A DNA stretch of 64,000 nt from Escherichia coli. GTDB taxonomy: Bacteria; Pseudomonadota; Gammaproteobacteria; Enterobacterales; Enterobacteriaceae. The DNA lies in assembly GCF_009931435.1 (NCBI RefSeq), contig NZ_CP043414.1; one strand, written 5' to 3'. The notes under the pieces are model-generated. The model saw nothing but the letters and a program-made list of their open reading frames with translations, was not told the DNA's origin and ran no database searches. Below are positions 6,663-54,824 of the stretch, piece after piece (the first letter of the stretch is position 1; every line of letters begins with the position of its first letter). The position numbers were made by a program, and so were the translations under genes.

Positions 6663-8087
6663 TTACTGCATTAACAGATAGATGGTGCTGTCGCCGCGCT
6701 GAATATTCAGTGCCAGCACAGACGGTTTGCTGTCGAGAACTTTACGCAGTTCAGCGATGTTTTTCACTGCCTGCTGGTTCGCACCAATAATCACATCACC
6801 TTTCTTCAGGCCGATCTGCGCAGCTGGAGTGCCCGTTTTCACGTTGTTCACCACCACGCCCTGATCTTTGCCTTTGTTGCTCATCTCAGCGCCTTCAATG
6901 CCGTTGAAGATGGTGCTGGAATCAACCTGATTCTGGCTGCTCTGCTGCAGTTCCAGGTTCACGTTAACCTGCTTCCCGTCGCGCAGTAAGCCCAGGGTCA
7001 GTTTGCTGCCTACCGGCATAGTGCCCACCTGAGCACGCAGTGCGGCAAAGCTGCTGATTGGCTTACCGTTCAGTGAGGTGATCACATCACCCGCTTTAAT
7101 GCCCGCTTTCGCGGCGGAAGAATTCGGCAGAACCTGGCTTACGAAAGCACCGCGCTGGGCGTCAACTTTCATCGCTTTCGCCAGATCGGAGTTCAGCTCA
7201 GTCCCCATAATACCCAGCTCACCGCGTTTCACCTGGCCGTATTCCACCATCTGCGAGGTCAGGTTTTTCACCATGTTACTCGGGATAGCAAAACCGATAC
7301 CGATGTTGCCGCCGTCCGGTGCGAGGATCGCGGTGTTGATACCGATCAGTTCGCCGTTCAGGTTAACCAGCGCACCACCGGAGTTACCACGGTTGATCGC
7401 AGCATCGGTCTGGATGAAGTTTTCATAGTTTTCGGCATTCAGACCGCTACGCCCCAGCGCAGAGACAATCCCGGAAGTTACCGTCTCACCCAGACCAAAC
7501 GGGTTACCAATTGCTACGGTGTAATCACCCACGCGCAGTGCATCAGAATCCGCCATCTTAATTGCGGTCAGATTTTTCGGGTTCTGGATCTGGATCAGCG
7601 CGATATCAGAGCGCGGATCTTTGCCAACCATCTTCGCGTCGAACTTACGACCATCGCTCAGCTGGACTTTAATCACCGTCGCGTTATCAACAACGTGGTT
7701 GTTGGTGACGACATAGCCTTTATCGGCATCAATGATGACGCCGGAACCCAGCGCCATGAATTTCTGTTGCTGGCCGCCGCCATTACCGCCCTGGCCCCCC
7801 TGGCAGAACGGAGAGCTCTGGAACGGAGAACCTTCCTGGCAGAACGGAGAATCATCACCGAAGAACTGCTGGAAATTACGCGGCATACGCGGCGTATTAA
7901 CGGTTGTGCTACCTTCTACGTTAATGCTGACCACTGAAGGCATCACCTTTTCGAGCATCGGTGCAAGGCTTGGCATCTGCTGGGCTGTCGTTGCTGAAGA
8001 AGTCTCAGCCGCCGTTGCAGAGAGCGGAGATAACGCCAAACCTAAACTCAGAGCCAGTGCACTCAGTGCTAATGTGGTTTTTTTCAT
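6663..8087 (-). CDS. degP: periplasmic serine endoprotease DegP/HtrA
   Basis: 474-aa ORF with signal peptide, trypsin-like catalytic region (GNSGGAL) and two PDZ domains. Confidence 0.95.
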   Translation of the reverse strand: MKKTTLALSALALSLGLALSPLSATAAETSSATTAQQMPSLAPMLEKVMPSVVSINVEGSTTVNTPRMPRNFQQFFGDDSPFCQEGSPFQSSPFCQGGQGGNGGGQQQKFMALGSGVIIDADKGYVVTNNHVVDNATVIKVQLSDGRKFDAKMVGKDPRSDIALIQIQNPKNLTAIKMADSDALRVGDYTVAIGNPFGLGETVTSGIVSALGRSGLNAENYENFIQTDAAINRGNSGGALVNLNGELIGINTAILAPDGGNIGIGFAIPSNMVKNLTSQMVEYGQVKRGELGIMGTELNSDLAKAMKVDAQRGAFVSQVLPNSSAAKAGIKAGDVITSLNGKPISSFAALRAQVGTMPVGSKLTLGLLRDGKQVNVNLELQQSSQNQVDSSTIFNGIEGAEMSNKGKDQGVVVNNVKTGTPAAQIGLKKGDVIIGANQQAVKNIAELRKVLDSKPSVLALNIQRGDSTIYLLMQ

Positions 8088-8132
8088 GTATTTCAGTCTC
8101 GATTAACAGATAACGCAAAATTGCTGTGTTCT

Positions 8133-50215: not shown

Positions 50216-50359
50216 TTGCTGACAAAGTGCGCTTTGTTCATGCCGGATGCGGCGAAAACGCCTTATCCGGCCTACTAAAACTCGCAAATTCAATAAATTG
50301 CAGAGTTCACGTAGGCCTGATAAGCGTAGCGCATCAGGCAGTTTTGCGTTTGTCAGCAG
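50216..50359. repeat. REP pair (BIME) in the gcd-cueO intergenic region
   Basis: GCCGGATGCGGCGAAAACGCCTTATCCGGCCTAC and inverted GTAGGCCTGATAAGCGTAGCGCATCAGGC; flanked by inverted 10-mers TGCTGACAAA / TTTGTCAGCA. Confidence 0.8.
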
Positions 50360-50404: not shown

Positions 50405-51955
50405 TTATACCGTAAACCCTAACATCATCCCCGTATCTTCATGCTCCAGCAGATGGCAGTGCGCCATATATGCATGTTCTTTCGGGGCGTCATGATTAAA
50501 CTTCACCAGGACTTCGCTGACATTACCTTCTACCTTAACGGTATCTTTCCAGCCTGCGCGATGCGTCGCTGGCGGTTTGCCATTTTCCGACAAGATACGG
50601 AACTGCGTACCGTGGATATGGAACGGATGCAGCATCATGTCGCCCACGCCAGAGATAACCCAACGCTCGTACTGCCCTTTTGCTGCCGCAAACATCGGCT
50701 TGTTCATATCAAACGCCTGACCGTTGATTTTATTGGCATGGTGGAAATCGAACTTCCCGTCGTGGTTCATATGATTCATATTGCCGTGCCCCATATGGCC
50801 CATCATCTGGCTGTGGTCCATCCCGGCCATCGCCTGATCGCCATATTTCTCCATCAGCATCTGCATACCAATCATATCGAGCATCGGGTCCATAGAGAGT
50901 TGCAGCTTGCGTACCGTTAATCCATCCAGCGAAGGTAACGCTGGCAGGCTACCTAACGCGTCAGGTAAGGCACCTGAAGCACTAATGGAAATCGGCTGGA
51001 TCCGCATTACCGGATGCGGCTTGTCAAACGGTGCAATTGCCATTCCCATCTGGCTGACCGGTAGCGTCACCAGATCAAAGGGTTTGTTGTCGTTAACCTC
51101 CACCAGCACTTCGAAACGCTCGCCCATCAGCACCGGCAGCTCGCTCACCTTCACTGGTTCAGGTAGCAGACCACCGTCGCTGGCAATCACATACAGCGGG
51201 CGATTGTCACTGGTAGCGAAATTGAGCGAGCGGGCGTTACAGCCATTGAGCAAACGCAGGCGCAGCCAGCCGCGCGGGGCGGCGTGTTGCGGGTAGATAG
51301 CACCGTTGGTCAGCAGCGTATCGCCAAACCAACCCACGGCAGCGGTCATCACATCCAGTTGATAATCAATCTGCCCGTCAGCGTTAAATTTTTTATCCTG
51401 CACGATCACCGGGACATCATCGATACCCCACTGTTTTGGCAGCATTAATTTTAGAATCTCGTCATCTTCAATCACTACCAGCCCCGCCAGCCCCATCGCC
51501 ACCTGTCGCCCGGTTTTGCCATGTTGATGCGGATGGAACCAGCAGGTAGCGGCAGGTTGATCAACGTTCAACGTCACCGTACGCTTGCCACCTGGCGGAA
51601 TAATTCCCTGCGGGCCGCCGTCGACTTCACCCGGTACTTCCAGCCCGTGCCAGTGCAACGTCGTTTCTTCCGTCAGTTGGTTATAGATATCAACCGTTAC
51701 CGCTTTGCCGCGCTGTAATTTCACCGCCGGCCCCAGCAGATTGCCGTTATAGCCCCAGGTAGTTGCCGTTTTTCCGGCAAAGGTGGACTGGCCTGTGCCA
51801 ACAGTTAACTGAATACGATTGCGGGCATCAGTCGTGAGCAAATCAGGGATCGGTAACGTTGGACGCTCCGCCGCAAATACTGCGCGGCTCCACAGCGGCA
51901 AGGCTGAAGCTACGCCCAGCGCAATGGAATATTTCAAGAAATCACGACGTTGCAT
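50405..51955 (-). CDS. cueO: multicopper oxidase CueO (Tat-secreted)
   Basis: ORF 50405..51994; start placed at MQRRDFLK (twin-arginine signal); copper-binding HxH motifs and Met-rich segment. Confidence 0.93.
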
Positions 51956-52120
51956 AGTTATTTCCTTATTCTTAAGCAGGCGAAACAAAATCAAACGTTG
52001 AGCATAGTCCTTCCCCTTACGGGAAGGTCAAGCCGCAGACACAATTTAATCAACAATAATGGTCGTCGCCTCGCTCGCAGTGTGCTAACGTTTATCTTCT
52101 TTAAGCCCCTGGTAGAAGCA

Positions 52121-52468
52121 ATGAAGACGTTTTTCAGAACAGTGTTATTCGGCAGCTTGATGGCCGTCTGCGCAAACAGTTACGCGCTCAGCGAGTCTGA
52201 AGCCGAAGATATGGCCGATTTAACGGCAGTTTTTGTCTTTCTGAAGAACGATTGTGGTTACCAGAACTTACCAAACGGGCAGATTCGTCGCGCACTGGTC
52301 TTTTTCGCCCAGCAAAACCAGTGGGATCTCAGCAACTACGATACCTTCGACATGAAAGCCCTCGGTGAAGACAGCTACCGCGATCTCAGCGGCATCGGCA
52401 TTCCCGTCGCTAAAAAATGCAAAGCCCTGGCTCGCGATTCCTTAAGCCTGCTTGCCTACGTCAAATAA
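52121..52468 (+). CDS. yacC: uncharacterised periplasmic protein YacC
   Basis: ORF 51950..52468; start placed at MKTFFRTVLFGSLMAVCANSYA (signal peptide; 115 aa). Confidence 0.85.
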   Translation: MKTFFRTVLFGSLMAVCANSYALSESEAEDMADLTAVFVFLKNDCGYQNLPNGQIRRALVFFAQQNQWDLSNYDTFDMKALGEDSYRDLSGIGIPVAKKCKALARDSLSLLAYVK

Positions 52469-52573
52469 TCCCTGATACCTTTTTGTAGAAATATTGACCG
52501 TGCATCCGCGGTCAATGTTAGCTATTATGTTGCGCCCTTTTTTTACGGGTGTTAACAAAGGAGGTATCAACCC

Positions 52574-53440
52574 ATGGCCGAAAAAAAACAGTGGCATGAA
52601 ACGCTACACGACCAGTTTGGGCAGTACTTTGCGGTAGATAACGTTCTGTATCATGAAAAGACCGATCACCAGGATCTGATCATTTTTGAGAACGCTGCAT
52701 TTGGCCGCGTAATGGCGCTGGATGGCGTAGTACAAACCACCGAGCGCGACGAGTTTATCTATCATGAGATGATGACCCACGTTCCGCTATTAGCCCACGG
52801 TCACGCGAAACATGTGCTGATTATCGGCGGCGGCGACGGTGCCATGCTGCGTGAAGTGACCCGACATAAAAACGTTGAGTCAATCACGATGGTGGAAATC
52901 GATGCGGGTGTCGTGTCGTTCTGCCGTCAGTATCTGCCCAACCATAACGCCGGTAGCTACGACGATCCGCGCTTTAAACTGGTGATCGACGATGGCGTCA
53001 ATTTCGTTAATCAAACCAGCCAGACCTTTGATGTCATTATCTCCGACTGCACCGATCCTATCGGTCCCGGCGAAAGTCTGTTCACCTCAGCATTTTATGA
53101 AGGCTGCAAACGTTGCCTGAATCCAGGCGGTATTTTTGTCGCACAGAACGGCGTCTGCTTTTTACAGCAGGAAGAGGCCATTGACAGCTATCGTAAACTC
53201 AGCCATTACTTCAGCGATGTTGGCTTTTATCAGGCGGCAATCCCGACCTATTACGGCGGCATCATGACCTTTGCATGGGCGACAGATAACGACGCCTTAC
53301 GCCATCTCTCAAGCGAAATTATTCAGGCGCGTTTTCTCGCCTCTGGCCTGAAATGCCGTTATTACAATCCGGCAGTCCATACGGCAGCTTTTGCCTTACC
53401 TCAGTATCTGCAAGACGCACTGGCCTCACAGCCGTCCTAA
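52574..53440 (+). CDS. speE: spermidine synthase
   Basis: 288-aa ORF with aminopropyltransferase motifs (GGGDG). Confidence 0.95.
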
Positions 53441-53455
53441 GGAGAAGATAAGAAA

Positions 53456-54250
53456 TTGAAAAAACTGAAACTGCATGGCTTTAATAATCTGACCAAAAGT
53501 CTGAGTTTTTGTATTTACGATATCTGCTATGCCAAAACTGCCGAAGAGCGCGACGGTTATATCGCTTATATCGATGAACTCTATAATGCCAACCGCCTGA
53601 CCGAAATTCTGTCAGAAACCTGTTCCATTATCGGAGCCAATATTCTTAACATCGCCCGCCAGGATTACGAACCACAGGGTGCCAGCGTCACTATTCTGGT
53701 GAGTGAAGAACCGGTCGACCCGAAACTTATCGACAAAACAGAACACCCTGGACCACTGCCAGAAACGGTCGTTGCCCATCTCGATAAAAGTCATATTTGC
53801 GTACATACCTATCCGGAAAGCCATCCTGAAGGCGGTTTATGTACCTTCCGCGCTGATATTGAAGTCTCGACCTGCGGCGTGATTTCTCCGTTGAAGGCAC
53901 TGAATTACCTGATCCACCAGCTTGAATCCGATATCGTGACCATTGATTATCGCGTGCGCGGTTTTACCCGCGACATTAACGGTATGAAGCACTTTATCGA
54001 CCATGAGATTAATTCGATTCAGAACTTTATGTCCGAGGATATGAAGGCGCTGTATGACATGGTGGATGTGAACGTCTATCAGGAAAATATCTTCCATACA
54101 AAAATGTTGCTTAAAGAGTTCGATCTTAAGCACTACATGTTCCACACTAAACCGGAAGATTTAACCGACAGCGAGCGCCAGGAAATTACCGCTGCGCTGT
54201 GGAAAGAAATGCGCGAGATTTATTACGGGCGCAATATGCCAGCTGTTTAA
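53456..54250 (+). CDS. speD: S-adenosylmethionine decarboxylase proenzyme
   Basis: 264-aa ORF starting at TTG (MKKLKLHGF); pyruvoyl-enzyme cleavage region. Confidence 0.93.
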
Positions 54251-54287
54251 CGGCTCTGGCGGAGCTCGCAGGCTCCGCCAGATTTAT

Positions 54288-54650
54288 CTACTTCTGCTGC
54301 ACAAAATCGCGATAAGCCGCCACTACCTGCAAGAAGTCCTCAACGCCGCACAGCGACAGGCTTTCCTCGTCGTAGTAGTTCATCCCCTCTTCCATTTCAT
54401 CGCCAGCGAATTCCAGTTGATTGGCGCGAACCATCACCTCTTCACCGTCCATCCACAGGGTGTATTCATGCCCTGCCCGCTGCCAGGAACGTTCGCTGCC
54501 TTTGAGCGTGCGCGCTGCGTCTTCCACTTCGTCAAGCAAGGCCAGGTTTTCTTTCACCTCTTCATTAAACCAGTGCCCGATGACTTCATGCCCCATGGAC
54601 ATGCGCACCTTTACCACTCCGGTTACATCGCGCAGAAATTCGTAATCCAT
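54288..54650 (-). CDS. yacL: UPF0231 protein YacL
   Basis: ORF 54288..54698; start placed at MDYEFLRDV (120 aa). Confidence 0.85.
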
Positions 54651-54752
54651 AGTGTGTTCCTCTGCTCCCGGCAATGCGCCGAAATCGCATTGCGCCATTG
54701 ATTTAATTATCGCAGCCTTATCGGAGAAAAACAGCGGAACGGCGATGGTTTA

Positions 54753-54790
54753 GAAATAAAAAATGCCCGGGAATCTCATTCACCGGGCAT
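54753..54790 (-). terminator. rho-independent terminator after acnB
   Basis: stem ATGCCCGG/CCGGGCAT with a minus-strand T-run (TTTTTATTT), ~35 bp after the acnB stop. Confidence 0.65.
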
Positions 54791-54824
54791 TGTCTCGTTT
54801 ATGCGCAGCGGGTGCGCTTACTTA

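Follow-up and report, generated by a model that had tools for sequence, protein, structure and literature searches.

Introduction

UUG and GUG start codons tend to be accompanied by stronger, compensating Shine–Dalgarno (SD) elements (Belinky et al. 2017, PMC5622118). As an initiation codon, TTG is inherently less efficient than ATG, and changing UUG to AUG in gshA increased GshA–LacZ synthesis 3-fold (PMC4405209). Start codon and SD position are also the features by which members of the polyamine modulon are classed: mRNAs with an SD placed about 10 nt before the start are stimulated by polyamines, and too much spermidine represses this distant-SD class (PMC7177335, PMC4405209). Membership also calls for translational stimulation by polyamines that disappears once UUG is replaced by AUG or the SD is moved. 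The UUG/GUG class of the modulon comprises cya, cra, spoT, gshA, frr and uvrY, and the distant-SD class comprises oppA, fis, rpoN, soxR, emrR and others. For E. coli K-12, just 81 previously annotated UUG starts are counted by Nakahigashi 2016 (PMC4909307), and the TetRP supplements of that study do not mention speD. Start sites in this organism have been mapped in vitro by INRI-seq (Hör et al. 2022, PMC9825163), which uses a synthetic E. coli transcriptome, a purified translation system and retapamulin; each transcript carries 30 nt of 5′ UTR and 153 nt of coding sequence. The non-ATG start treated in PMC8674398 is the GTG of argA, not that of speD, and our literature search found no paper on the speD start codon or its translational coupling.

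Here, we analyse the start of speD in a window of 64,000 nucleotides of E. coli DNA (RefSeq assembly GCF_009931435.1, contig NZ_CP043414.1), to which all coordinates refer unless a K-12 position is named. That speD starts with TTG is already known from the RefSeq annotation and from in-vitro footprints; the start site itself is textbook annotation that changes nothing, and the finding is in that sense ordinary. The added value is comparative, namely a sub-optimal TTG that is frozen across the Enterobacterales, tiny symbiont genomes included. The depth of this conservation, together with an inverse relation between start codon and SD strength within the family, is a small addition that we did not find stated in the searchable literature, and it illustrates a known principle.

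Results

Relationship of the window to K-12 and other E. coli

The window shares with K-12 the gene order yacC-speE-speD / yacL-acnB, and its speD shares with K-12 speD (b0120) the TTG start, a 264-aa product and a junction identical from −30 to +73. The two genes differ at 26 of 795 nucleotides, none of them in the start region, and window SpeD has E194 where K-12 has D. Across the window, K-12 MG1655 and RMDEC465, the speE/speD junction is identical from −30 to +64. The surrounding 2-kb region (52400–54400) has a match in 5,425 of the 5,426 complete E. coli genomes, and for most of them, K-12 included, identity is about 96.7%. Only five genomes reach at least 99% identity over 52400–54400, the best being RMDEC465 (99.8%), which was isolated from human stool in Thailand. 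Because most E. coli are about 96.7% identical here and only five genomes come as close as 99%, the window lineage appears to be a divergent Escherichia. Three of 5,433 matches to the speE-speD region fall on plasmid-typed records, and in HT-948 the region is split at the speE/speD junction.

Anatomy of the speE–speD junction

The gene for spermidine synthase (polyamine aminopropyltransferase), speE, occupies 52574–53440 on the plus strand and encodes 288 aa, as given by the open reading frame list, profile matches (NCBIfam NF002010, 424 bits; TIGR00417, 413 bits) and the RefSeq K-12 locus. It opens with an ATG preceded by AAGGAGGT and closes with a TAA at 53438–53440 (+). The speD initiation codon, TTG, lies at 53456–53458 (+), leaving a gap of exactly 15 nt (53441–53455), the same spacing that the preliminary description had given. 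The SD element, UAAGGAG (53438–53444, +), forms a 7-bp duplex with the 3′ tail of 16S rRNA at −9.1 kcal/mol, and at AAGGAGAAG (53439–53447) the SD core and the speE stop codon overlap. Between this element and the start codon runs an A-rich spacer of 11 nt (AAGAUAAGAAA, 53445–53455, +) that is unpaired in both the minimum free energy and the centroid folds. The GGAG core is thereby 11 nt from the speD TTG, a long distance.

The speE TAA and the speD TTG lie in one frame with no stop codon between them (TAA GGA GAA GAT AAG AAA TTG), and the in-frame stop upstream of speD is therefore the speE TAA itself, 6 codons before the TTG and at −36 from the His7 codon. Loss of the speE stop, or its read-through, would yield a SpeE–SpeD fusion; since the frames differ in other species, the shared frame is probably incidental.

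Operon annotation and a single terminator after speD suggest a shared transcript for speE and speD. The terminator-like element begins 5 nt past the speD stop (54255–54282, +) and consists of a hairpin of 12 bp (8 G-C pairs) with a 4-nt loop and, after it, a T-run. Placed between speD and yacL, which converge, it is probably a bidirectional terminator. The longest open reading frame of yacL (54288–54698, minus strand) has 136 aa, and the RefSeq coding sequence has 120 aa, 16 codons fewer, starting at an internal ATG of the 136-aa frame.

The speD product

The speD gene (53456–54250, +) encodes a class 1a (E. coli-type) S-adenosylmethionine decarboxylase (AdoMetDC) proenzyme of 264 aa. Its product scores 491.9 bits against TIGR03331 (cut-off 255.8), with residues 3–261 aligned to all 259 profile positions (1–259); speD homologues carry PF02675. 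The 264-codon frame begins MKKLKLHGF, and the conserved N-terminus that the preliminary description had read from TTG 53456 is indeed encoded there. The codon for Ser112, the precursor of the pyruvoyl cofactor, lies at 53789–53791 (+), where residues 111–112 are K-S, and S112, H113 and H117 are invariant across the speD protein alignment. The role of the serine in AdoMetDC self-processing is established (PMC10407285), and Lys111–Ser112 is the predicted self-processing site of window SpeD.

The AlphaFold model of SpeD has a moderate mean pLDDT of 66.5. A Foldseek search with this model returned Thermotoga (T. maritima) and Aquifex AdoMetDC structures as its top five PDB matches, with E-values of about 1e-5 and target-normalised TM-scores of 0.62–0.77; a PDB sequence search with SpeD gave zero matching entries. 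Because residues 1–10 have a pLDDT below 50, the model is silent on any structural need for the SpeD N-terminus. The subunit N-terminal sequences of E. coli AdoMetDC were reportedly given by Anton & Kutny and by Tabor & Tabor, both in 1987.

Several public speD calls are longer, at 298–414 aa (P0001, P0003, P0004, P0012, P0026 and P0079), owing to a frameshift near the C-terminus, after which they continue along the antisense strand of yacL. An origin of these calls as SpeE–SpeD fusions was rejected, the extensions being C-terminal; they are sequencing errors or pseudogenes. In the JGI calls of speD the first residue is shown as L, the TTG being left untranslated as Met.

The initiation codon of speD

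From the preceding in-frame stop up to codon 82, which is a GTG, TTG 53456 is the only in-frame ATG, GTG or TTG. No in-frame ATG occurs before codon 177, past Ser112. A single ATG lies near the speD start (53475–53477, +), in the +1 frame, where it begins an open reading frame of 5 codons (MALII and a stop). In K-12 MG1655 as well as in RMDEC465, RefSeq/PGAP starts the speD coding sequence at this TTG.

The published in-vitro data bear directly on this site, the window being identical to the INRI-seq speD construct from −30 to +73. INRI-seq reports a translation initiation site at the speD start (K-12 position 135582, minus strand) in five of five replicates, with footprints of 47.7, 45.7, 61.2, 35.0 and 37.9, and calls the site identified (Table S2, PMC9825163). 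An alternative speD initiation site is absent from Table S3 within the first 153 nt of the coding sequence, and the in vivo Ribo-RET column beside the INRI-seq data reads 0 for speD and speE alike and is therefore uninformative (PMC9825163). The claim of the preliminary description that speD starts at TTG 53456 is thus borne out: the codon is the sole candidate, is annotated in RefSeq, is footprinted in INRI-seq and, as described below, is invariant in at least 80 species.

Conservation of the TTG

For the comparative set, one genome per GTDB species was scanned, and the best 80 loci, all from Enterobacteriaceae or Erwiniaceae, were anchored on the invariant HGFNNLTKS motif; these are the most similar loci and no unbiased sample. 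The TTG is invariant in 80 of these 80 loci and in all 81 sequences of the alignment, which represent 80 species. Most of the best 80 loci have an in-frame stop 1–6 codons before the TTG and no rival start. Of the 62 silent third positions that this alignment has in codons for invariant residues, 59 vary, and transversions are present at nearly all fourfold sites of speD, with the T of the TTG constant. As 3 of the 62 silent sites are likewise invariant, invariance of the TTG under neutrality has a chance of roughly 5%, in an argument for purifying selection that rests on one site. We infer that selection maintains the speD TTG.

Among E. coli genomes, a 61-mer around the TTG is present at 99% identity or above in 5,351 of 5,425; the other 74 carry variant 61-mers and are covered by the queries at that threshold only. 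The same 61-mer with ATG or GTG swapped in was found in 0 of the 5,425 genomes at 99% identity or above. Outside the best 80 loci, the speD genes of Yersinia (with UAAGGAGGUGA) and of two symbionts with reduced genomes, Arsenophonus and Ca. Dasytiphilus (590 kb), also start with TTG. So do those of Permianibacter, where speE ends 166 nt upstream, and Marinobacterium, where speE is absent upstream and the TTG was chosen by the gene caller over a GTG as the sole alternative. The speD of Gallaecimonas (L087) starts with GTG, and six speD homologues of about 44–60% identity, mostly located after osmC, have ATG starts.

In more distant Gammaproteobacteria (L087–L092), speD follows an OsmC-family gene, in the order crp / osmC / speD, and not speE. 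Five of these six combine an ATG start with no recognisable SD, the sixth being Gallaecimonas.

The Shine–Dalgarno partner

SD duplexes were computed against ACCUCCUUA for the 81 sequences. The median is −12.5 kcal/mol, corresponding to a 9-bp duplex of the form UAAGG(A/G)GGU, and the spacing to the TTG is the same in 62 of 81. The Escherichia element, with its 7 bp and −9.1 kcal/mol, has a spacer 1 nt longer, and the alignment presents it as a degenerate version of the UAAGGAGGUGA of most relatives, 1 nt further upstream. It has decayed from UAAGGAGGUGA to UAAGGAGAAGA, and because of this decay and the added nucleotide the Escherichia speD site is probably weaker than that of most relatives.

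Beyond the best 80 loci, the non-ATG starts have SD duplexes of −6.4 to −13.4 kcal/mol in varying geometry; that of the Gallaecimonas GTG is −8.0 kcal/mol. The six ATG-start homologues have values of +1.0 to −3.2 kcal/mol, which amounts to no SD, in a sample for compensation that is small and confounded, as these are metagenomic lineages that may use SDs little generally.

Initiation strength and coupling to speE

The preliminary description had read the TTG, the sequence before it and its distance of 15 bp from the speE stop as pointing to a weak, coupled start. Dividing INRI-seq peak by transcript abundance (Table S4), a crude normalisation of our own applied to in-vitro data, gives about 0.90 for speD (45.5/50.7) and about 0.35 for speE (121.7/344.8). 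With a per-transcript footprint above that of the speE ATG, the speD start region as a whole is not supported as weak in the form stated.

Coupling deserves closer consideration. If it were obligate or predominant, ribosomes ending at the speE TAA would re-initiate 15 nt further on, the weak TTG would limit de novo initiation, and SpeD output would be tied to SpeE output. The gap of 15 nt and the overlap of the SD with the stop codon speak for such a reading, and the speE stop lies between −14 and +49 nt from the TTG in all 81 Enterobacteriaceae/Erwiniaceae sequences (14 nt is commonest, in 27 of 81). A consensus scan of 51900–54800 found no promoter-like site between the two genes, in a scan crude enough to have missed the known operon promoter as well. 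Set against this is the INRI-seq construct, which has a 30-nt leader and no speE, so that speD initiation in vitro is independent of upstream translation; it occurred in five of five replicates, with a per-transcript footprint at least equal to that of the speE ATG region. Moreover, the TTG is retained across the 166-nt gap of Permianibacter and in Marinobacterium with no speE upstream, settings that make coupling unlikely or impossible, the stop-to-start geometry varies among species where the SD and TTG are fixed, and the near-perfect SD of most relatives is a hallmark of efficient independent recruitment. On balance we consider obligate or predominant coupling, and with it a tie of SpeD output to SpeE output, rather doubtful. 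As stated, then, the claim of a coupled start is unsupported: coupling is unnecessary for in-vitro initiation and does not explain the TTG, and geometrically it is still plausible.

Polyamine-responsive initiation

A different account of the TTG would make it part of a sensor. Given its UUG start and the 11 nt between SD and start, speD translation could respond to putrescine or spermidine, in feedback or feed-forward, and the invariant UUG with its extended SD would be a conserved translational sensor in which polyamines or Mg2+ modulate UUG-dependent initiation. That the TTG is so deeply conserved needs explaining, and the polyamine modulon has both a distant-SD class and a UUG/GUG class, the features of which are united in E. 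coli speD (PMC7177335, PMC4405209). However, speD is outside the roughly 20 listed members of the modulon and is unmentioned in both of these sources, and if polyamines stimulated speD, their synthesis would feed back positively on itself, an arrangement with no obvious homeostatic value. The distant SD is also specific to Escherichia, whereas the TTG is general and most relatives have strong, normally spaced SDs. We therefore regard polyamine-responsive initiation as improbable, and we hold the wider proposal of a conserved polyamine or Mg2+ sensor to be a long shot of the same order. If it were true, the Enterobacterales would have a translational control point on AdoMetDC, and a change of UUG to AUG would be deleterious, uncoupling SpeD synthesis from polyamine status.

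RNA structure and other functions of the junction

Conservation extends beyond the TTG to its flanks: A occurs at −1 and −2 in 80 of 81 sequences, codon 2 is AAA in 79 of 81, and positions −3 to +8 are almost invariant in nucleotides. It could be supposed that the TTG and its flanks (AAAUUGAAAAA) are kept for binding of a protein or small RNA, or as an RNase site, and not for start-codon strength, the more so as codon 2 would allow synonymous or conservative change. The structural evidence speaks against this. RNAalifold on 19 diverse junctions gave 0 conserved pairs, and the single-sequence fold has z = +0.61 with the start region open; on the same two results, we rejected structure that masks the SD or the start. 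Rfam has no family at the junction, either in the gathering-threshold scan of the whole window or in a permissive scan of 52300–54500 with E-values up to 1. Flank conservation needs no second function, because initiation is known to depend on the very features conserved here, A-rich flanks free of structure and positions −1 to −3 (PMC5622118), and in Erwiniaceae codon 2 has changed from AAA to CAA with the TTG kept. A second function of this kind is thus very unlikely.

Two Rfam matches above the gathering threshold lie elsewhere in the window, namely an HtrA 5′ UTR thermometer at 8082–8127 (minus strand, 77 bits) and an ES036/CssrF small RNA at 50277–50318 (plus strand, 41.3 bits), the latter just downstream of cueO. 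Short hairpin-forming palindromes, for example CGCCGGGGCAACCCGGCG and CACTGTCCGCACAGTG, occur at the speE 3′ end or in the gap before the SD in several species (about 2440–2465 in L026 and L027, about 610–630 in L005, and in several Pantoea loci); they are conserved in neither position nor sequence, and RNAalifold did not detect them.

A true start further downstream, at GTG codon 82 or ATG codon 177, with the TTG noncoding or a plain leucine, has nothing but the rarity of TTG starts to recommend it and can be dismissed, as the former would lose dozens of invariant positions, the latter lies beyond the Ser112 processing site, an internal leucine is barred by the in-frame stop 1–6 codons upstream in most species, and INRI-seq shows no alternative site in the first 153 nt. 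The downstream ATG that the preliminary description had named as its refutation is likewise excluded for a functional enzyme, because the ATG at 53475 is in another frame and codon 177, before which no in-frame ATG occurs, follows Lys111–Ser112; a start beyond Ser112 would yield no active enzyme.

Discussion

Taken together, we are confident that TTG 53456 is the genuine and sole initiation codon of speD, the second gene of the speE-speD operon, and that it belongs to an SD site usable by free ribosomes; it is probably held by selection together with its SD. In the mechanism that we propose, the SD UAAGGAG overlapping the speE stop would recruit ribosomes, and the unstructured A-rich spacer would follow. 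As the published in-vitro data demonstrate, free ribosomes can initiate at the speD TTG with speE untranslated, and, judging from the geometry, ribosomes finishing speE may use the same site. The TTG is in this view no passive accident, being unchanged across the Enterobacterales and some other Gammaproteobacteria, usually with a near-perfect SD. Its pairing with the SD probably caps or tunes SpeD synthesis, and output would in this way be set at a level that selection maintains.

Because AdoMetDC consumes S-adenosylmethionine irreversibly, it is plausible that selection limits how much of the enzyme is made. The speD start may reasonably be considered as a candidate site of dosage-sensitive or polyamine-responsive initiation, and for overexpression of the spermidine pathway a swap of TTG for ATG in speD would be an obvious and cheap lever.

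Compared with translationally coupled cistrons, speE and speD are similar in lying on the same strand with a 15-nt gap and an SD overlapping the TAA. They differ in that the isolated speD start region works in vitro with speE absent. The likeness to the polyamine modulon lies in a UUG start, an SD core 11 nt away and a place in polyamine metabolism, but speD is absent from the published member lists. A polyamine-responsive uORF is known for eukaryotic AdoMetDC, and a speD sensor, were it true, would be analogous to it in purpose and not in mechanism.

The genome-wide comparison of Belinky, Rogozin & Koonin 2017 (PMC5622118) offers a further close parallel. Its tendency for UUG to be replaced by AUG is not followed by speD, a slowly evolving gene in which UUG has been retained in at least two families and beyond, and in Escherichia the SD that compensates for it has lost part of its strength (−9.1 kcal/mol). 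In other respects the agreement is close: the speD TTG is paired with a 9-bp SD at fixed spacing in 62 of 81 sequences, positions −1 to −3 are conserved, and the ATG-start homologues are without an SD. With distant homologues that have ATG and no SD, speD is a clear case from nature of start codon and SD compensating for each other.
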